Below, in pieces: positions 3,113-28,900 of a stretch of DNA of 64,000 nt. The DNA is taken from positions 27,589 through 91,588 of IMG/VR virus record IMGVR_UViG_3300017987_000009. One strand, 5' to 3'. Position numbers and translations under genes: made by a program. Positions within the stretch are counted from its first letter, which is position 1; each line of letters opens with the position of its first letter. Source of the stretch: a virus. The notes below the pieces were generated by a model that was not told the DNA's origin, did not search any database, and saw only the letters and a program-made list of their open reading frames with translations.

Positions 3113-4987
3113 ATGGCGACAAAGAATGAGTACACCAATATAATCCTCAAGCGGCTGCTCGATTGGGACCACCTCGGGGCCTACCTCTTCGACTACATGA
3201 TGGACGAGCTGCGCGCCGCCTTCGCTCGCGTCTACGACAAGGACGGCACGTTCGGCAGCACGAAAGTCACGATCGCGGCGAGCGGCAACGATGAGTTCGA
3301 TCTGTCGTCGCAGCAAGGGACCGACGGGCGAGGCTGGTTCCTGGAGAGCGGGCTGCTGTACAGCTCGGTCGACTACGAGCAGAACGTGCCGTTCGAGAAT
3401 ACCAACACCGTCATCTATGACATCGGCCTTCGGCGCGCCCTTGTGCCCATCGGCGTTCACAACGGCTCGCGCTCTGGCGTGCCGGAGTACAAGCGGTGGC
3501 AGGAGCGCATCGGGAAAGTCGGAACCCCCGACAGCATTGGCACCGGTCTCTCGTCCAACGTGTACCTCAACCTCCCCGCCTCCATCTGCGACAACGACCG
3601 CACGCACGCTGGCCGGAAGGTCTTGGCGTGGAAGGTCGACCCGCTGTCGAGCGAGGAGGCCGTCGCGATCCAGTTGCTCACCGTCGAGTTCACGGGCAGC
3701 GTGAACCGCGTTCTTTCCAACGACTTCTTCGGAGGCGACTCGAAGGACTCCACGGCCGCGAACTACCGCGTCTGCCTTCTCGGCCCGCGCGTGACGCGGC
3801 AGAGCGAGACGCCGCTCCAGAGCGAAAGCAACACGTGGTATGTGGGGCAGATCGTCGGCGCCGGGGCTGGCAACCCGCCGACAAGCCCTTCGGTGGCAAA
3901 CCAGCGGTTGATCGAGTACTCGCTCTCCGACTGGATCGCGCAAGTGGACACGAACAAAGCGCTGTCCGAGGGGAACTTCGGCGTGCGGCAAGCGGCGTCG
4001 ATCGGCAACTGGTTCCTCGGCGCCGAGGCCGCGTCCGGCGGCGACTACAGCGCGAACGACGCGGCGGGTGGTCGCACCGGTAGCGCCACGACCGCTGGCG
4101 GGACTTACTGGGTCGTCGTCGGCGACGACGACGGGTCGGACGCTTTGTTGTTTTACTCGAACCGCGGACGCGAGTGGACGGAGAAGGCGAACCCGAAGGC
4201 GTACGACCTCAACGGCGTCGTCTACGATCCCTCCAACGACATCTGGATTTCCGTTGGCGACGCAGACGGCGCCGACGCTTACATCATCACATGTCCGTCG
4301 TCGCCGAACCAGACGTGGACCGAGCGCGCGAACGCCAAGAACGTGTCCCTGAACAAGATCGCCACGGACGGTTCGGGCACCTCGATCGCGGTCGGCGCGA
4401 ACGACGGTTCGGACGTCTACGCGTTGAAGACGACGAACGGCACCTCGTTCAGCGAGCTGTCCCTCGGCGGCTCTGGAGACGTCGGCAACGACATTGCCTA
4501 CGGCGAGCCGGGCGGCGTGCCGACCTGGGTGGTCTGCGGGCGGAACGGTTCGACGCCGAAAGTTTGGTACAGCATTGACGGCGGTTCGTCCTGGAGCTCG
4601 GCTACCGTGCCGGGGTCCTTCGCCGACCCGTGCAAGACCATTGCCTGGAACGGGCGCAAGTTCGTGGTCGGCGGCGACAGCGGCGACATGATGAATAGCG
4701 CCGACGGGCAGACTTGGGCGTTCATCCACGACCAGTGGGGCGACCTCAACAACGTCGAGGGCGACACGCTGAACCATGTATTCCTCGGATCGACCGGTGC
4801 GCAGTTCTTCGCCTCGCTTGACGACGGCGACACCTGGCAACGCTTGCCGCACTATCCGCATCGGGCGGGCGACGAGACGAATGCCCCGGCGCGCGTGGCG
4901 CATGACGGCTACGCGTGGCTCGGCTACGAGGTGGACTTTACCGACGACAAGCTCTGGACGGCGTTCTCGGGCAACACGAACTTCTAA
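3113..4987 (+). CDS. Tail fibre / receptor-binding protein with BNR/Asp-box beta-propeller
   Basis: Repeated S-x-D-x-G-x-T/S-W-like motifs (YSNRGREW, TTNGTSF, YSIDGGSSW, SADGQTW, SLDDGDTW); position after baseplate genes. Confidence 0.7.
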   Translation: MATKNEYTNIILKRLLDWDHLGAYLFDYMMDELRAAFARVYDKDGTFGSTKVTIAASGNDEFDLSSQQGTDGRGWFLESGLLYSSVDYEQNVPFENTNTVIYDIGLRRALVPIGVHNGSRSGVPEYKRWQERIGKVGTPDSIGTGLSSNVYLNLPASICDNDRTHAGRKVLAWKVDPLSSEEAVAIQLLTVEFTGSVNRVLSNDFFGGDSKDSTAANYRVCLLGPRVTRQSETPLQSESNTWYVGQIVGAGAGNPPTSPSVANQRLIEYSLSDWIAQVDTNKALSEGNFGVRQAASIGNWFLGAEAASGGDYSANDAAGGRTGSATTAGGTYWVVVGDDDGSDALLFYSNRGREWTEKANPKAYDLNGVVYDPSNDIWISVGDADGADAYIITCPSSPNQTWTERANAKNVSLNKIATDGSGTSIAVGANDGSDVYALKTTNGTSFSELSLGGSGDVGNDIAYGEPGGVPTWVVCGRNGSTPKVWYSIDGGSSWSSATVPGSFADPCKTIAWNGRKFVVGGDSGDMMNSADGQTWAFIHDQWGDLNNVEGDTLNHVFLGSTGAQFFASLDDGDTWQRLPHYPHRAGDETNAPARVAHDGYAWLGYEVDFTDDKLWTAFSGNTNF

Positions 4988-5004
4988 CTCGGCAAGGAGG
5001 CTTC

Positions 5005-5670
5005 ATGAGCAACGCGATCATAGTCAACGGGAAGTGCTATCCGGTGAACGTGCCGGTGAAGCTGTGGGACGAGACGGGGCTGGAGGTCGTACCGTGGCGC
5101 GGCGCCCGCAAACGCCGTCGCTCGATCACCGTCGGCGTATGGCATTGGACCGGCGGGGAAGGAGGAGCGGCCGGACTGTTCCGCGTCCTTCGCAACAAGG
5201 GGTACGGCGTCGAGTTCTACATCGACCAAGCGGGAACCATCTGGCAGTTCTGCGATCCCGCGCTCGTCGACACCTTCGATGCTGGGTGGATGAACTCACG
5301 CTCGTTCGGCGTGGAGATCGCCAACTACGGCTTCCGACGTCGCGGCGTGCTGCCGCCGAAGAGGGGACGAGGGCGCCCGACCTACCTCTGCAAGCTCAAC
5401 GGACGGCGCCGGGAGTTCGCCCACTTCTGGCCTGCGCAGTTCGCCGCCGCGATGGCGCTGGCCGACGCGATGTCCAACGCGTGTCCGGTGCCGCGCAGCG
5501 TGCCGACGATCGGCGGGCAGGTGGTCAACCCGAACACCCTCGAACCGGAGGAGGCGCAGCACTTCGCCGGACACCTCGGCCACTTCCACATCACCAAGCG
5601 CAAGAGCGATCCGGGCCTTGACCTGCTCTCGATGTTCGCCGCGCAGTTCGCCCAGACCATTAGGAGCTGA
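5005..5670 (+). CDS. Endolysin, N-acetylmuramoyl-L-alanine amidase (Amidase_2-like)
   Basis: VWHWTGG, FYIDQAGTIWQ, NSRSFGVEIAN, GHFHITKRKSDPG zinc-amidase motifs; AAGGAGG before ATG 5005. Confidence 0.85.
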   Translation: MSNAIIVNGKCYPVNVPVKLWDETGLEVVPWRGARKRRRSITVGVWHWTGGEGGAAGLFRVLRNKGYGVEFYIDQAGTIWQFCDPALVDTFDAGWMNSRSFGVEIANYGFRRRGVLPPKRGRGRPTYLCKLNGRRREFAHFWPAQFAAAMALADAMSNACPVPRSVPTIGGQVVNPNTLEPEEAQHFAGHLGHFHITKRKSDPGLDLLSMFAAQFAQTIRS

Positions 5671-7060: not shown

Positions 7061-9526
7061 ATGGCGACGCTGACAGTAGACAACAGGCACGCGTACGTGG
7101 AGGGCGCCCCGCTCCACGCGCAGCGCGCGATCGCGCGCGAGACCAGCTACCTGCAGGCCGGGTACAAGCACACCGCCGGGTTCAAGACGAAGCGGTGGGA
7201 CGGCAAGCGGAAGCTGGCGTCGATGCTGAAGGACGGGCGAATCAAGGTCCCGGCCGGGCTGGCGCAGGCGGTGGCCGACACGCTGTGCGACGAGGGCGTG
7301 CCCGTGCGGACGGTCGACGAGCGCCGCCGCCAGGAGCGCAGCGTGGCCTACGGCTGGGACCCGGGGTGCTCGCTGCGCCCGTACCAGGAGCGGGCGGTCG
7401 CGCTCGCGACGACGCCGCGCGGCACGCTCGGCCTGGTCGGCCGCGGGATCCTGAAGCTGCCGCCGCGCAGTGGCAAGACGCTGGTCACCGCCGCCATCGT
7501 CCGCGAGCTGGGCGCCCGCGCGCTGTTCATCGTCCCGTCAAAGTACCTGCTGCACCAGGCGAGGGCCGCCATCGGCGACGCGCTCCAGGCCGAGGTGGGG
7601 CAGGCGGGCGACGGCGAGTGGGAGCCGCGCGACGTGACGGTCGCGACGGTACAGACGCTGTGCAGCCGGCGCGGGAAGAACACCAAGAGGGAGCCGGCCG
7701 CGCCGGAGTACACCGAGCTGCTCGCTCGCTCCGACCTGGTCGTGTTCGACGAGTGCTTCCCGGCGGGGACCATAGTCGGCGACAAGCGAATCGAAAAGAT
7801 CCGAATCGGGGACGAAGTCCCGTCCTTCGACGAAGGTAGCCGACGAGCAGTGAGCGGGCGGGTCGTACGCCTGTTCAAGAAGCGGTGCGTCGAGTTGGTC
7901 AGGGTTCGTTTTATCTGCGGGAGGTCGCTGGTCTGCACTCCTAACCACCCCTTGTACTCGTCGCGCGGGTGGGTCCGCGCCGACAGCTTGACTGAAGGAT
8001 CGGAGGTGCTGCGTGTCGATGACAACGATGGCGTGCACCGGCTGCGGACAGCCGGTGATCAAGACCAGAAAGAGACCGACCGCCTATTGCGAAGCGTGCC
8101 AGGCGGCGCGGCGATTGGCCCGGCGAAAGAAGGTCCAAACCGAGTGCGCCTGGTGCGGGGCGCAGATCCAGTTGAGCGGGCGCCTCGGTCTGCAAGCGGC
8201 GAATCGGGGACGGGGGTACTGCTCGAAACAGTGCAAAAAGAAGTGGATGAAGCGGCGCTGGTCGGAAACGATGGCGGCGACGAACCGGAAGCACGCGTCA
8301 GCTCGGATGAAGAAGAACAACCCGTCAAGGAGACCGGATGTGCGAGCGAAGATATCGCGAACGCTGCGACTCATCGGACACCGTCCGCCGTGGACCGGCG
8401 GCAAGGGGCGAGGGACGACACGACCGCAGCGAGCGCTTCTAGCGGCGCTAACGAGAATCCAAGACGGGTGGACGGCCGAGCTGCCGATCGGCGTCAGAGG
8501 AGTCTCGGGGCTACCGAGGTGCGTCTACGTGGACCTGGCGCACGAGGCGAGCAAGACGGCGGTGGAGGTGGACGGCGGAAGCCACTGCACGCTCAAAGCT
8601 CAAGCGTCGGACCGGAAAAAGGAGCGGTTCTTAGCTGGTCGCGGGTGGACCGTGTTGAGGTTCTCGAACCGGGAAGTGACGGAAGGTTTGGAGGCGTGTG
8701 TCCGGACGGTCACGTCTACAACCTCGAAGTCGACCGGTTCCACACGTACACGGCCGACGGCTTCGTAGTCCACAACTGCCACCACCTCTCGTCCGACGAG
8801 TGGCGCAAGGTCGTGCGCGAGAGCGACGCGCCGTACAAGATCGGGCTGAGCGCGACCGCGTTCGTCGACCGCGAGGAGGAGGCGGAGCTTGGCGTGATCT
8901 GGCTGCGCGCCTGCACGGGCGAGGTCCTGGTCGACCTGTCGTGCAGCGACCTGATCAGGCAGGGCTACCTCGTCCGCCCGGAGATCCGCGTCCACGCGAT
9001 CCGCGAGCCCGACCTCCGGCGGCGCGGCTGGAGCACGAAGCTGCACCGCGACGCGATCTACAGGAACGAGCACCGCAACCGGAAGATCGCCGAGCTCGCG
9101 TGCGGGCACGCGGCCGCCGGCCGGCGGACCGTCGTCGTCACCAGCAGGCTCGAGCAGGTCGGCGCCATCACGCGCTTGCTTGGACAGACGCGTGTCCGCT
9201 TTGCGCGCGTGGTCGGGCAGACGCCTCAGTCGACACGCGACCGACAGGTCTCGCGCCTGCGGCGCGGCGAGCTCGACGCGCTCGTCGGCACTGTGCTGGA
9301 CGAGGGCGTCGACATCCCCGAGGTCGACGCGGTGGTCAACGCCGAGGGCGGCGCCGACGACAAGACCACGTACCAGCGCCTGCGCTGCCTGACGCCGCAC
9401 CCAGGCAAGGCGCGCGCGTACGTCGACGACTTCGTCGACCTGACGCACCCGTACTTCGCGGCGCACTCGCTCAAGCGGCTGGCCGTGTACCGGTCCGAGC
9501 CCGAGTTCCGCGTCGCGGTCCGCTGA
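7061..9526 (+). CDS. Superfamily II DExH helicase precursor containing an intein
   Basis: LRPYQ (Q motif), PPRSGKT (Walker A), VFDE|...|CHH giving DECH after splicing, GLSAT (motif III), VLDEGVDIP, YQRLR. Confidence 0.93.
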   Translation: MATLTVDNRHAYVEGAPLHAQRAIARETSYLQAGYKHTAGFKTKRWDGKRKLASMLKDGRIKVPAGLAQAVADTLCDEGVPVRTVDERRRQERSVAYGWDPGCSLRPYQERAVALATTPRGTLGLVGRGILKLPPRSGKTLVTAAIVRELGARALFIVPSKYLLHQARAAIGDALQAEVGQAGDGEWEPRDVTVATVQTLCSRRGKNTKREPAAPEYTELLARSDLVVFDECFPAGTIVGDKRIEKIRIGDEVPSFDEGSRRAVSGRVVRLFKKRCVELVRVRFICGRSLVCTPNHPLYSSRGWVRADSLTEGSEVLRVDDNDGVHRLRTAGDQDQKETDRLLRSVPGGAAIGPAKEGPNRVRLVRGADPVERAPRSASGESGTGVLLETVQKEVDEAALVGNDGGDEPEARVSSDEEEQPVKETGCASEDIANAATHRTPSAVDRRQGARDDTTAASASSGANENPRRVDGRAADRRQRSLGATEVRLRGPGARGEQDGGGGGRRKPLHAQSSSVGPEKGAVLSWSRVDRVEVLEPGSDGRFGGVCPDGHVYNLEVDRFHTYTADGFVVHNCHHLSSDEWRKVVRESDAPYKIGLSATAFVDREEEAELGVIWLRACTGEVLVDLSCSDLIRQGYLVRPEIRVHAIREPDLRRRGWSTKLHRDAIYRNEHRNRKIAELACGHAAAGRRTVVVTSRLEQVGAITRLLGQTRVRFARVVGQTPQSTRDRQVSRLRRGELDALVGTVLDEGVDIPEVDAVVNAEGGADDKTTYQRLRCLTPHPGKARAYVDDFVDLTHPYFAAHSLKRLAVYRSEPEFRVAVR
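7754..8776 (+). mobile_element. Intein (341 aa) inserted in the helicase Walker B/DExH motif
   Basis: Starts CFPAGT (block A), has CTPNHPL (block B TxxH), VYNLEV..FHTY (block F), ends VVHN followed by Cys+1; less GC-biased codon usage than the flanks. Confidence 0.95.
8013..8768 (+). CDS. Zinc-finger + DUF559/Vsr-like endonuclease overprinted in the +1 frame inside the intein
   Basis: CTGC/CEAC/CAWC/YCSKQC Cys motifs, basic DNA-binding stretch, then YVDLA...AVEVDGGSH...DRKKERFL..RGWTVLRFSNREV; GGAGGT at 8002-8007 before GTG 8013/ATG 8019. Confidence 0.88.
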   Translation: MSMTTMACTGCGQPVIKTRKRPTAYCEACQAARRLARRKKVQTECAWCGAQIQLSGRLGLQAANRGRGYCSKQCKKKWMKRRWSETMAATNRKHASARMKKNNPSRRPDVRAKISRTLRLIGHRPPWTGGKGRGTTRPQRALLAALTRIQDGWTAELPIGVRGVSGLPRCVYVDLAHEASKTAVEVDGGSHCTLKAQASDRKKERFLAGRGWTVLRFSNREVTEGLEACVRTVTSTTSKSTGSTRTRPTAS

Positions 9527-10042: not shown

Positions 10043-11344
10043 GTGCGCGAGAGGCAGTCGAGGAAGTACCGGAAAGTCAGCGCGCGGCTGTGGAACGACC
10101 CGAGGTTCAGGTCGCTATCGCTGCCCGGACCGAGCGGGCAGTTCCTCTACTGGTTCCTGCGGACGGGGCCGCAGGCGAGCATCGTGCCGGGCCTGTTCGA
10201 GGCGCGGGCGCCGGGCTTGGCGGATCGGCTCGGCTGGAGCGTCGACGACTTCAAGCGGGAGTTCAAGTCGCTGTCGTCGACGTCGCCGCCGCTGGCGCTC
10301 GCCGACTGGGACGCGGGGCTCGTGTGGATCCCCGACGCCGTCGACGACGACCGGCCGCAGTCTGTCAACACAGTCAAGTCGTGGCAGAACTCGTGGGACG
10401 AGCTGCCCGACTGCGAGCTGAAACTTGAAGCGTATCAAGCACTTAGAAATTGCATGTCACATGCCATGTCACATGCTTTTGCAGAAGCATGTCGCCGACC
10501 ATGTAACACTCAGACACAGACACAGACACAGACGCAGACACAGACGCAGACACACCGCGCTATGCGCGGTGACGCGCGTACGCGCGAGGCGCAGGCGCAA
10601 GCGCGTGAGGAGAAACCTCGGCAGGCCGGCGTCGACCACTCCCGCCTGCGAGAGGCGCTCGTCGCCGCGAAGGGGAAGAAGTCGACCGGCCGGCCGGCGC
10701 CCGTCGACGATAGCCCGTCAAACCCCGAGCTGTTCGGCCTGCGGTTCAAGGATCGATCCAAGCTGATCCGGTTCCTGGAGTCCGAATACGCGAAGGGCGC
10801 GGACCTGCGGCGGCAGAGAACGCTGCTCGCGAAGATCGAGGACGAAGTCGTCCGCGTGTACCGCGCCGCGAGGTGGCGCGCGACGGGCAACGACTACGTG
10901 AAGCTCGGCGAGGCCGGGCGGAAGGCGGCGCGCGCGATCGGAGTAGCGTGCGTCGGGCACGGCCTGGCGCCCGAGCAGGTGGTCGCGTACTGGCAGGACC
11001 CGGAGAACAACTTCACCAACATGGCGTTCCCGTCGCTCTCGTTCATGGGCGGCGAGAAGAACATCGAGCGGGCGGCGGCGGCGCTCAAGCCGGCGAGGGC
11101 CGGGCGGTCGACGGCGGCGAGGCGCGGGCACAGCTACGACGACGGCGGCGAGCTGCACCCGCGGCTGCGCGAGGCGCTGGTCGAGGCCGGCCTGCTCGAG
11201 GTCGCGCGGTCGACGACGAACCGCGAGCTGATGACGGTGCAGAACGCGGCGCTCGCGGTCCTCGAGGGCCGCGACCCGGGGATGAGCCACTTCCTGCGCA
11301 GGCAGGCGGAGGCGGTCGTCCACCTGTTCAAGGAGGGAGGCTGA
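10043..11344 (+). CDS. Phage replication initiator (replisome organiser-like)
   Basis: N-terminal YRKVSARLWNDPRFRSLS...FLYWFLRTGP typical of phage initiators; internal repeat linker; lies upstream of DnaC/DnaB. Confidence 0.75.
   Translation: MRERQSRKYRKVSARLWNDPRFRSLSLPGPSGQFLYWFLRTGPQASIVPGLFEARAPGLADRLGWSVDDFKREFKSLSSTSPPLALADWDAGLVWIPDAVDDDRPQSVNTVKSWQNSWDELPDCELKLEAYQALRNCMSHAMSHAFAEACRRPCNTQTQTQTQTQTQTQTHRAMRGDARTREAQAQAREEKPRQAGVDHSRLREALVAAKGKKSTGRPAPVDDSPSNPELFGLRFKDRSKLIRFLESEYAKGADLRRQRTLLAKIEDEVVRVYRAARWRATGNDYVKLGEAGRKAARAIGVACVGHGLAPEQVVAYWQDPENNFTNMAFPSLSFMGGEKNIERAAAALKPARAGRSTAARRGHSYDDGGELHPRLREALVEAGLLEVARSTTNRELMTVQNAALAVLEGRDPGMSHFLRRQAEAVVHLFKEGG
10421..10510. promoter_or_regulatory. 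Putative replication origin: AT-rich tract, IHF consensus site, CATGT iteron-like repeats
   Basis: TATCAAGCACTTA (10433-10445) matches WATCAANNNNTTR exactly; CATGTCACATGC x2 (10453-10476) plus CATGTCGCCGAC and CATGTAACACT. Confidence 0.55.
10511..10554 (+). repeat. Hexamer microsatellite (CAGACR)n encoding a TQ repeat
   Basis: cagaca/cagacg tandem copies translate as TQTQTQTQTQTQTQT. Confidence 0.9.
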
Positions 11345-25973: not shown

Positions 25974-28900
25974 CGGCTCGGAAGAAGAAGGCTGGCGCGC
26001 ACACGTACCGCGCGCTGTTCACCGCGGACTGGCAGCTGTGCAACTCGCTGCCGCACTCTAAGCCCAGGTCGCTCGACGCGGAGCTCTCGGCGAAGCCCGG
26101 ACTGACGGACAGGTTCTGCGACCAGCTCGACGTTGTCGCGCAGATCGAGGTGCTCGCGCAGAAGGAGAAGGTCGACGCGGTGTTCTTCCTCGGGGACCTA
26201 TTCGAGAAGTCGCTGCTCGACGCGGTCACGCTGACCCACGGGGTCGGCGCCGTCGTCAACCTGTCGAAGGTCTGCCCGGTCTACGTCCTGCCCGGGAACC
26301 ACGACGCGCACGGCTCGGCCGGCGTGCGGTTCACGCCGGAGGTGTTCGACGAGATCGGCGCGGACATTAAGTTCCTCGGAGGCAAGGAGGTGCTGCGCCC
26401 GAGCGGGCAGGTCAAGGTCGCGTTCCACCCGCTGCCGTGGCGCCCGCCTGGCGAGGTGATGCCGAGGGTCGAGGACTTGCGCGCGGCGGCGAAGAAGGGC
26501 GAGACGAACGTCCTGCTCCTGCACAACAGCGTCGTCGGCTGCCGGCACCAGGGCTGGGTGTGCGACGACGGCGTCGACGCGGAGCGGCTGTGCGTCGGGT
26601 GGGAGCTGGTCCTGGCCGGGCACTTCCACGACCCGCAGCGGTTCGGCGAGTCGGTTCCCGGCCGGTACGTCGGCGCCCCGATGCAGCACGACTTCCGCGA
26701 TGCGGACTCGCCGGATCGCGGGGTGTGGATCTACGAGTTCGAGAAGGGCGGTCAGTTCAACGGCAAGTTCCACGAGCTGGAGTCGCCGAAGTTCCACATC
26801 GCGAAGTGGGAGCTGCCGCACCTGGTCGAGTGCGCCGAGCAGGCGGATGAAGGCGACTACATCCGAGTGGTCGCGGAGATGACGCACTCCGAGTGGACCG
26901 CGATGTCGAAGGAGATCGAGGTCCGGTGCAAGGAGCTGGCGGACGAGCGGAACGTCCGCGTCCTGCCGCTGCACAAGCCGGTCTACCACCACGAGGTCCG
27001 GCTTGACACGGACGGCGGGGTAATCTTGCCGGAGGAGGCCGTGTCGAAGTACCTGGCGATCGCGAATACCGACGGGCTGAGCGACGACAAGCTGAAGGAG
27101 ATCGCGCTCGGCGCGCTGCGGGAGGTCGGCCGCAACGAGCCGGGCGCGGCGATGGGCGCGGCTGCGAACGTCGTCCACCTGAAGGCCACCGACTTCTGTT
27201 GCCTCAAGGAGGTGTCGCTCGGCTTGTACCGGATCGGCTTGGTCCTCGTCATCGGCGAGAACCGCGACACTGACGCGGCCGATAACAACGGCGCTGGCAA
27301 GTCCACGATCTTCAAGGCCGTGACGTGGTGCCTGTTCGGCGAGACGATCGACGGCGACCGGTACGACGAGGTGATCCGGTGGGGCGCCAAGCGGGCGGAG
27401 GTCGCCGTGCTGCTGGCCGCGGGCGACGAGACGTGGATCGTCCGGCGCTGGAGGACGAAGGGCAAGCCCGGCCTGTCGCTCCACATCATGCGGTCGAAGA
27501 AGGACGGCGAGCGCCGCGTGTCCACGGTCGAGGAGCCGTGGCCCGGCGACACCAAGGCGGTGCAGGCCAAGGTCGTTGAGCTCGTCGGTCTGGATTTTCG
27601 CGGCTTCTGCAACACGGTGCTCTACGGCCAGGGCGACGTCGACAGGTTCTTCTCGTCGACGGACACGGCGCAGAAGGAGACGCTGCACCGCGCGCTCCGC
27701 ACCGACGTCTACCGCAAGGCCGAGCTCTGGCTGCGCGACGTCCTGAACAAGTCGCTTAGGCCGAAGGTCGAGGGCGCCCAGCGCGACCTCGACAAGGCCG
27801 ACGCAAGGTACGAGGAGCACGACGTCGAGGAGATCGAGCGCGCGTTCGACGAGTGGGAGGCGGAGCACGACCGCGAGGTCAAGGAGAGGGCCGACGAGGT
27901 CATCGACCTGACGAGGCGCGCGCGCGCCGTCGACGACGCCGCAGCGGCGAGGCGGGAGGAGCTGGAGGCCGAGCGGGCCGAGCTCGAGGCGGCGCTCGCC
28001 GCCGCCGCCGAGAAGGACGCCGAGCTCGACAAGGTGGTCGGCCTGCGGGAGGAGGCGCAGGAGAAGCTGACCGCCGCCGGCCGCGCGCGCAACGCGAAGG
28101 ACGAGGAGCTTAAGTCCGCGCAGCGCCAGCTCGCCCTCCTAGACGGCGACAGATGCCCGACCTGCACGGCGCCGCTCGCGCGCGGCGCGCCGGCCAAGTT
28201 CGCCAAGCAGCTCAAGACGCGGAGCGGGCAGCTGGCCGGCGAGCTCGAGGCCGCGAGCATCGAGGTCGAGCGGCTGGACGGCGAGGTCGAGCGGCTGACG
28301 AGGGAGCGCGACGGTATCCGCGACTGGCTCTACGAGAACGCCGTGCCCGACGGCAAGCTAGCCGACGTGAAGGCGGACATCGCCGCCCTGGGCGCGGAGG
28401 CCAAGACGGAGAAAGCCTCGCTGAAGCGGCAGGCCGCCGAGGCGCTCGCCGCGGCGGGGGCCCTCGCGAAGAAGGAGAACCCGCACAGGCGGTCGCTCGA
28501 CCAGGCGCACGAGCGCGCGAAGGAGCTGTCGCGCCTGCTCCACGAGGCGACGTCCAAGCGCGACGCGGCGCAGCTCGACGTGGCGCACCACGAGTTCTGG
28601 GTGCGCGGCTTCGGCGTGCAGGGCCTGCCGTCGATCCTGCTGGACGGCACGATGCCGTACCTGACGGAGCGCGCGAACCACTACCTCGAGACGCTGTCGG
28701 ACGGCGACATCGCGGTCTGCTTCGACACGCAGCGCGAGCTGAAGTCGAAGAAGGGCGAGAAGCGCGACGAGCTGGAGATCGCGTGGACGATCGAGGGCGT
28801 GCCCGGCGCGACGCCGAGCAACGGGCAGAAGCGGAAGCTCGAGGTCGCAACCGACCTCGCGCTGATGGACCTGGTCTCGTCGCGCGAGGGCGAGCTCGAC

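Follow-up and report, generated by a model that had tools for sequence, protein, structure and literature searches.

This report concerns a helicase gene in a 64,000-nucleotide (nt) stretch of viral DNA, called the window throughout (positions 27,589 to 91,588 of IMG/VR record IMGVR_UViG_3300017987_000009). The source record is that of a complete virus of 91,588 bp with direct terminal repeats. The gene encodes a phage DNA helicase of superfamily 2 (SF2) whose motif II is split by an intein, and between the two splicing lobes of the intein a second open reading frame (ORF), offset by +1, encodes a protein of the Vsr/DUF559 nuclease type. The features of the locus, numbered from the first letter of the window, are as follows.

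7061..9526, plus strand: precursor of the SF2 (ResIII/DExH) phage DNA helicase, 821 amino acids (aa) including the intein (ORF, Pfam, PHROG)
7061..7753, plus strand: N-extein, whose final residues are the Asp-Glu of helicase motif II (sequence; intein-less homologues)
7754..8776, plus strand: intein, 341 aa in frame 0, with Cys1, TPNH (block B), VYNLEV (block F) and terminal His-Asn (sequence, Pfam, alignment)
7754..8029, plus strand: Hint N-lobe, intein residues 1-92 (AlphaFold2 (AF2) predicted local distance difference test (pLDDT) 95-98, Foldseek, PT-HINT)
8002..8007, plus strand: GGAGGT, a Shine-Dalgarno-like motif 5 nt before GTG 8013 (sequence)
8013..8768, plus strand: +1-frame nuclease gene, 251 aa, from GTG 8013 to TAG 8766-8768, with alternative starts at ATG 8019 and ATG 8028 (DUF559, homologues, AF2)
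8013..8312, plus strand: N-terminal module of the nuclease, a long basic helix preceded by two zinc-ribbon-like units with four Cys pairs (model residues 4-101; PHROG 1271)
8030..8623, plus strand: frame-0 linker, intein residues 93-290, predicted disordered, free of stops but not conserved as protein (pLDDT 43-57, identities, entropy)
8412..8738, plus strand: catalytic domain of the nuclease, residues ~134-242, alpha/beta, Vsr/DUF559 fold (VIA-align, invariant columns)
8624..8733, plus strand: doubly coded stretch in which both frames are confidently folded, the WTVLRF strand and last helices of the nuclease against the block F strands of the intein (AF2 models, identities)
8624..8776, plus strand: Hint C-lobe, intein residues 291-341, blocks F and G (pLDDT 91-98; conserved in 55 inteins)
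8777..9526, plus strand: C-extein and stop codon, with Cys+1 (CHH of motif II) as first residue (sequence)

The helicase gene and its intein

The helicase frame, frame 0, is unbroken from 7061 to 9526, and the host gene is not divided into two ORFs. Its product matches the Pfam families ResIII (expectation value (E) 6.4e-15) and Helicase_C (E 7e-10), as well as the DNA helicase family PHROG 16 (E 4.8e-53). The C-extein is 67% identical to intein-less helicases of 482-485 aa, and intein-less homologues of ~480 aa carry an uninterrupted DE[C/A/V..]H at the insertion point. Used as a single-sequence query against viral contigs, the C-extein returned no close relatives; an alignment query did find relatives.

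The original prediction, made from the sequence alone, held that a complete intein splits the DECH motif of the helicase, and its landmarks are borne out. Cys1 (TGC, 7754) follows ...TTCGACGAG (Phe-Asp-Glu), block B reads TPNH, and the terminal His-Asn at 8771-8776 precedes Cys+1 (TGC, 8777). As Cys-His-His directly follows the terminal His-Asn, excision would regain the DECH of the Walker B motif (motif II). Hint families are the sole Pfam matches of the frame-0 intein (PT-HINT, E 6e-11, 43 bits against a cut-off of 27.7), and in an alignment of 55 family inteins C1, T62, H65, V321, Y322 and N341 are invariant and H340 nearly so. In the AF2 model of the intein, built with these 55 family members, the ordered lobes match the mini-inteins Ssp DnaB, Mtu RecA and gp41-1 (Foldseek, E ~1e-5). 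With Cys1, TxxH, HN and Cys+1, a predicted Hint fold and intein-less alleles in its relatives, the helicase insert is, judged by its sequence, a class 1 intein.

The centre of the intein is of another kind. Its ~200 frame-0 residues, which had been described as featureless, have no family match in Pfam and a pLDDT of ~47, and the in-frame "endonuclease region" is thus predicted to be a disordered tether.

A nuclease in the +1 frame

The +1 frame over the same DNA opens at 7992, 21 nt ahead of GTG 8013. The 251-aa ORF with four Cys motifs that the original prediction had drawn at 8013-8768 is there as described, both frames being open; its stop lies 8 nt short of the intein end, and across the family the distance is 8-50 nt. 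The assignment of its product to DUF559, proposed then from motifs, holds up in a profile search (PF04480, E 4.5e-10, 39.8 bits against a cut-off of 20.6, residues 173-234). Homologues form 107 protein clusters, with E values down to 1e-65.

The AlphaFold model of the nuclease, made with 29 homologues, has a mean pLDDT of 90.4 and shows a modular protein. The N-terminal module holds the four Cys pairs (C8/C11, C26/C29, C45/C48 and C70/C74), of which C45, C48 and C70 are nearly invariant among homologues. It is presumed from its sequence to be the DNA-binding part, and it matches PHROG 1271, "HNH endonuclease", at positions 175-248 (E 6.3e-9). On this comparison of sequences the module appears to be common to homing-type nucleases with differing catalytic domains. 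The length of the DNA-binding module varies, as can be seen from truncated copies and one-ribbon forms: in four loci (L011, L016, L027 and L052) the nuclease match starts ahead of an in-frame stop and the first zinc-ribbon unit is missing or the N-terminus truncated, and shorter forms with one ribbon are also common among the 107 protein clusters.

The catalytic domain aligns with the DUF559 protein NGO0050 (3hrl; VIA-align Z 14.4, root-mean-square deviation (rmsd) 1.3 A over 91 residues), with the catalytic part of I-Bth0305I, a homing endonuclease (3r3p; Z 12.6, rmsd 2.5 A over 95 residues), and with E. coli Vsr (1cw0; Z 11.0). Foldseek alone gave an E of 3e-3 at best. D174, E185, D187 and D200 are invariant in the 29 homologues, S190 and H191 nearly so, and the window copy carries every invariant residue.

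Conservation and asymmetry of the two frames

Is the second frame a real gene, and is the first one kept open around it? The arrangement was surveyed first in 82 loci, 80 on viral contigs and two in isolate phages. In 81 of them the nuclease lies inside the intein at +1 and frame 0 is open over the whole nuclease match, which answers for the homologues what the original prediction had proposed for the window. The third frame is closed in all 82, and likewise in the 69 non-identical viral loci used for the statistics of stop avoidance, in every one of which frame 0 is open along the nuclease gene. The host ORFs measure 680-1500 aa, being shorter only at contig ends, and nucleases of the homologous inteins are 35-52% identical. 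Essentially all junctions read DE-C(F/M)...(H/S)N-C(H/Q/K), the hyphens marking the intein borders. The two isolates, Pseudomonas phage MR14 and Corynebacterium phage phi673, have the intein at DE/CH, an unremarkable frame-0 middle and homologous +1 nuclease ORFs of 241 and 212 aa, respectively. A wider pattern search of IMG/VR gave at least 599 candidate stretches, and at least 312 viral contigs were confirmed to encode relatives of the nuclease; about 30 contigs of metagenome-assembled genomes (MAGs), from many phyla, show the same combination of intein and +1 nuclease.

A frame-0 stop can arise only where a nuclease codon ending in T precedes a codon beginning with AA, AG or GA. At such stop-prone junctions T was found in 0 of 4012 cases across the 69 loci, as against 23.1% T at the third codon position at the other 10,691 junctions. 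When synonymous nuclease codons were resampled according to the codon usage of the helicase itself, the probability of an open frame 0 was below 0.05 in 66 of the 69 loci, and in loci of 29-36% guanine and cytosine (GC) about 10-21 frame-0 stops were expected. Two free-standing relatives of the nuclease, L057 and L170, serve as natural negative controls, with 29 and 21 stops in the corresponding frame. Both frames are open and conserved in homologues beyond chance.

The constraint on the two frames is of unequal depth, as gauged by nucleotide entropy per codon position (with the DNA threaded on the nuclease alignment) and by pairwise identities. In every block along the gene, entropy peaks at position 3 of the nuclease codons, which is position 1 of frame 0. 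Over the body of the overlap, nuclease sequences have a mean pairwise aa identity of 0.43 and their frame-0 readings one of 0.21; in the last part, from the beginning of the Hint C-lobe, these become 0.52 and 0.40. From these patterns it follows that the nuclease gene dictates the sequence and that, up to the C-lobe, the one thing maintained in frame 0 is its freedom from stops, both proteins apparently constraining the DNA from there on: stop avoidance acts alone over ~590 nt, and protein conservation appears in the last ~110-150 nt. According to the models, both proteins are folded where they share about 110 nt (8624-8733). Read at +1, blocks F and G (VYNLEV...FVVHN) yield the conserved tail of the nuclease, STTSK...AS and stop. 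The dual coding that the original prediction had claimed is thus sustained as far as two conserved open frames are concerned, whereas selection on amino acids falls mostly on the nuclease frame and the folded overlap is confined to the last ~110 nt. The host frame offers a clean and quantifiable signature of selection purely against stops, and with it a natural example of second-frame constraint.

Mobility and distribution

The helicase genes of phages phi673 and phi674 are 99% identical on either side of a precise 906-nt insertion in phi673. The junctions read GATGAG/intein/TGTCATCAT in phi673 and GATGAG/GTGCATCAC in phi674. Differences between the two stand at +1, +2, +3, +9, +24, +75 and +78 after the junction, so that 7 of the 13 downstream differences fall within 78 nt; such clustering fits a co-conversion tract or a changed target site. 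The 2018 description notes a "putative intein" in the phi673 gp43 helicase that is missing from phi674 (PMC6132909). Both phages grow on Corynebacterium glutamicum ATCC 13032, which makes them a tractable isolate pair for the study of homing.

Of the 62 helicases closest to the window protein, 57 are intein-less proteins of ~480 aa with an uninterrupted DExH, and the five that bear an intein each stand in a separate sub-clade of a FastTree tree, which is without support values. Four intein-bearing helicases (P0115, P0122, P0129 and P0140) are known here from the protein only. DECH is replaced by DE[I/L/Y/V]H in phi674 and in the intein-free sisters of three intein-bearing lineages out of the five; the pairs are P0141 and P0139 beside P0140, P0119 beside P0115, and P0123 beside P0122, with DEVH in phi674 (L164). 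These alleles may be cleavage-resistant or non-spliceable target sites.

Pairwise nuclease identity is uncorrelated with extein identity (Spearman 0.10) and follows that of the Hint lobes (0.37). The nucleases of L050 and L053 are 95% identical and their helicases 63%; for L032 and L049 the figures are 69% and 30%. On MAG contigs of many phyla the intein with its +1 nuclease also occupies SNF2-like helicases; its site there, DExH(x)/C.KN, is an adjacent register of motif II, which suggests, as far as sequence can tell, jumps between helicase families through the shared nucleotide-binding motif. Some of these SNF2-like hosts are very large, from 1360 to over 2100 aa (L181, L182, L184, L186 and L188). 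Taken together, the phi673/phi674 pair, the scattered presence and the incongruent nuclease and extein identities support the mobility of the intein element.

Among viral contigs, the window phage has its closest relative in one of 91,710 bp (L084), whose helicase is 60% identical in the C-extein region. Its helicase has no intein and carries the motif DEIH. About 650 nt upstream of that helicase lies a gene (967-1647) for an HNH endonuclease of 226 aa; its zinc-ribbon motif, CxxC...YCSxxC, is similar to the N-terminal module of the nuclease in the window (over 30 residues, BLASTP E 0.002).

Proposed mechanism and alternative explanations

The reading favoured here, with a probability of roughly 0.8, is that of a mobile intein of the free-standing-nuclease type, in which a mini-intein-like Hint scaffold, inserted at DE/CH of a phage SF2 helicase, holds a complete +1 nuclease gene between its lobes. 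Ribosomes translating the helicase would read the nuclease gene in frame 0 as a tether of ~200 residues, for which disorder is predicted and stop avoidance is shown; such read-through is possible because selection removes every stop. The two Hint lobes would then associate and, going by the conserved residues and the fold, perform class 1 cis-splicing (Cys1, TxxH, HN, Cys+1) with the tether looped out, restoring DECH. The nuclease would be translated separately, from an internal start at GTG 8013 behind GGAGGT or at ATG 8019 or 8028, and would cut intein-less helicase alleles of co-infecting phages near the DE/CH codons, whereupon recombinational repair would copy intein and nuclease together. 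The cleavage and homing step is proposed on the strength of the distribution, the presence/absence pair of near-identical phages and the structural kinship to a proven homing endonuclease.

Several observations tell against this reading. The sequence-profile match of the nuclease to I-Bth0305I, of the EDxHD family, is marginal (E 0.094), and the local motif of the nuclease reads E-V-D-G-G-S-H, close as the structures are; the DUF559 profile gives the window nuclease E 1e-9, better than I-Bth0305I. The nearest relative of the nuclease is 52% identical, among the matches listed, and shows no sign of a very recent transfer into the window phage. In the window by itself frame 0 stays open in 10% of resamplings (P about 0.10), which is not significant; it is the family-wide data that settle the double coding as neither error nor chance. 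A Shine-Dalgarno match of at least 5 nt before the candidate start is found in 13 of the 69 loci, and a consensus scan of the window found no promoter-like site ahead of the nuclease ORF, phage promoters other than those of the sigma-70 type being outside its reach. The ribosome-binding site that the original prediction had seen inside the intein is present in the window as GGAGGT; as a conserved feature of the family it was rejected on the same count of loci, and an internal promoter was likewise considered and not found by the scan. With the motif in so few loci, independent initiation of the nuclease stays an inference.

How else, then, might the nuclease be made? A programmed +1 shift of helicase ribosomes, giving a fusion of N-extein, Hint N-lobe and nuclease, would suit the many family members that have no Shine-Dalgarno motif, and fused ORFs do occur in nature (L059, with 387 aa, P0170 and P0171), which might even be its only source. 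Yet gene callers place a Met a few residues ahead of the first CxxC in nearly all 107 homologues, and the +1 frame of the window opens just 21 nt before GTG. The fused forms are rare (three) and enter the nuclease frame within the zinc-ribbon module, as expected of indel damage, and production by frameshift or from fused forms alone is quite unlikely. It is also unlikely, if a shade less so, that the nuclease is real without being the driver of homing, as a repair or defence nuclease settled in a tolerant spot or a non-cutting relic in the window phage. Most proteins of the DUF559 and Vsr kinds are cellular enzymes whose function is a different one or unknown (as among the short matches L199-L239), and the window copy has no very close relative; but the nuclease and the Hint lobes travel together across unrelated helicases, phi673 and phi674 differ by exactly this element, and relatives that stand free lie immediately 5' of intein-less genes for SF2 helicases of the same type, in the manner of free-standing homing genes. 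Moreover, the second-closest structure is that of a proven homing endonuclease, and the window copy keeps all invariant residues.

The remaining alternatives question the intein, the sequence or the gene itself. Splicing might have been lost, the helicase gene being dead or the insert tolerated as a loop: the Pfam profile Intein_splicing scores 27-31 bits, below its cut-off of 35.8, and block F of the family inteins has Asn where many inteins carry Asp. Against this, 55 divergent copies show little or no change in the splicing residues (C1, TxxH, HN and C+1), an insert of 341 aa within the Walker B/DExH motif would abolish ATPase activity, and avoidance of frame-0 stops is sensible only if the C-extein must be translated, all of which makes loss of splicing very unlikely. 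An error of one base in sequencing or assembly, displacing a nuclease that is truly in frame with the intein, deserves mention since the window stems from a metagenome-derived virus record, and the original prediction had itself named such a read-level frameshift as what would overturn it. Two compensating errors would be needed, frame 0 being that of both Hint lobes; an identical +1 offset recurs in 69 non-identical viral loci and, which excludes a fault of reads, in the isolates MR14 and phi673; and frame-0 stop avoidance is itself under selection. A search for longer proteins adds weak evidence, having returned no in-frame protein of ~800 aa, and an error of this sort is extremely improbable. 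Almost nothing can be said for a chance open frame with a spurious domain match, in spite of a region of 60-70% GC with many long spurious ORFs around, when DUF559 scores above its curated cut-off, homologues in 107 clusters reach E 1e-65, relatives occur in phages of 29-36% GC, the fold is confident and codon-position variation marks +1 as coding.

Variants of the arrangement

Relatives of the nuclease are found in other settings too. In L057 (3358-3999) and L170 (3402-4013) a free-standing nuclease gene lies directly 5' of, and overlaps the start of, an intein-less SF2 helicase gene, with an intact DEAH in the L057 helicase. By their position these nucleases look like free-standing homing genes parked beside the target gene. 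In L059 (3344-4507), P0170 and P0171 the N-extein and Hint N-lobe are fused into the nuclease frame, and in L059 the Hint C-lobe and C-extein occupy a separate, overlapping ORF (3925-5577). These three are most simply seen, from their sequences, as indel-damaged or "fractured" derivatives; forms of the L059 type may stem from damage by indels or from a fault of assembly, or else be a natural stage on the way to a split intein. A canonical in-frame version of the nuclease-intein was sought as well. The search for longer proteins gave just the N-terminal fusions P0170 and P0171, apparently frameshifted, and no full helicase-Hint-nuclease-Hint protein of the expected length, which is weak evidence of absence.

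The forms at hand can be ordered as free-standing nucleases (L057, L170), nucleases overprinted in an intein of the cis-splicing type (hundreds of loci) and frameshifted or fractured forms (L059, P0170, P0171). A tentative proposal, for which the odds are somewhat less than even, is that the family stands, as a contiguous intermediate, between homing genes that are free-standing and inteins of both the canonical and the split kind, with all stages represented in the collections. Stop purging would then be a specific adaptation for living inside an intein without breaking the host gene, and translation of the helicase through the nuclease start could throttle the nuclease as a form of dosage control.

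Downstream of the helicase, within a 433-aa ORF (10043..11344), a Thr-Gln run (TQTQTQ...) is encoded by short-period repeat DNA at about 10535-10595, possibly a slippage-prone tract.

Inteins are usually defined and annotated as single in-frame polypeptides, and one with no in-frame nuclease is filed as a decaying mini-intein. The breadth of the present family (at least 312 viral contigs, 107 clusters and MAGs) contradicts such a filing: the nuclease is intact but in another frame. A scan of intein linkers in all six frames should be part of intein surveys and of pipelines for phage annotation.

Relation to known systems

The nearest parallels are the 63 actinophage inteins with non-canonical endonucleases described by Gosselin, Arsenault and Gogarten (bioRxiv 10.1101/2025.01.02.630785). 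Besides in-frame HNH enzymes these comprise LAGLIDADG and VSR-like nucleases, both antisense, and frame-3 nucleases like endonuclease VII, in hosts (from PhagesDB) that include DNA polymerase, minor capsid, terminase and thymidylate synthase genes; the authors propose that free-standing homing genes were captured by inteins and overlooked by annotation (bioRxiv 10.1101/2025.01.02.630785). The window family shares with them the lack of an in-frame endonuclease, the separate overlapping ORF and a centre without recognizable predicted structure in frame. Unlike them, it has a sense-strand +1 VSR/DUF559 nuclease, sits at motif II of SF2 helicases, overlaps the Hint C-lobe with the folded C-terminus of the nuclease, and reaches beyond actinophages to Pseudomonas phage MR14, low-GC viral contigs and MAGs of many phyla.

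A second parallel is provided by the fractured genes of Dassa et al. (2009), in which a Vsr-like homing endonuclease gene lies between split-intein halves in phage DNA-metabolism genes, its 3' end overlapping the downstream intein part by 6-69 bp (PMC2677866). The window nuclease gene, too, runs over the Hint C-lobe. In the fractured genes, however, the host gene is in two ORFs joined by trans-splicing, whereas frame 0 of the window family is open throughout, the intein is contiguous and cis-splicing is inferred. The window gene is presumed to be a contiguous, precursor-like counterpart of the fractured genes and not a member of them. As for the nuclease, it shares with I-Bth0305I (3R3P) the catalytic fold and the modular build, an N-terminal DNA-binding part before a C-terminal nuclease; I-Bth0305I resides in a group I intron of phage recA, the window nuclease in an intein.

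Nuclease ORFs hidden in the other frame of an insertion that is open in the host frame have been reported twice more. The ShiLan domain is an HNH endonuclease encoded out of frame in a phage methylase insertion lacking a splicing domain (Arsenault et al., 2025, PMC11855218), and a preprint of September 2026 presents a homing endonuclease that is out of frame in a cyanobacterial dnaX intein (bioRxiv 10.64898/2026.09.14.751524). The terms Vsr, DUF559, HNH and GIY-YIG do not occur in the text of the preprint. One member of the window family had been in print before: the phi673 gp43 intein has the same insertion site and the same +1 nuclease (212 aa), and the passages of the phage paper that deal with the intein, the helicase or an endonuclease do not mention the overlapping nuclease ORF beside the putative intein (PMC6132909), nor is that ORF annotated in the GenBank record of phi673. 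Apart from the dnaX preprint, the searchable literature contains no contiguous intein at motif II of a helicase with a sense-strand +1 nuclease of the Vsr/DUF559 type, and neither the stop-purging signature nor the overlap of folded domains is described there.

The novelty that the original prediction had left to be checked is accordingly divided: the concept was published in 2025-26, while the present family is absent from the searchable papers. With out-of-frame intein nucleases already published for other nucleases, frames and hosts, what the window represents is a well-supported and widespread family, not a categorically new mechanism. It supports the acquisition of nucleases by inteins through capture of free-standing homing genes, and it may link the fractured-gene split inteins of 2009 and the out-of-frame reports of 2025-26 as one evolutionary series.

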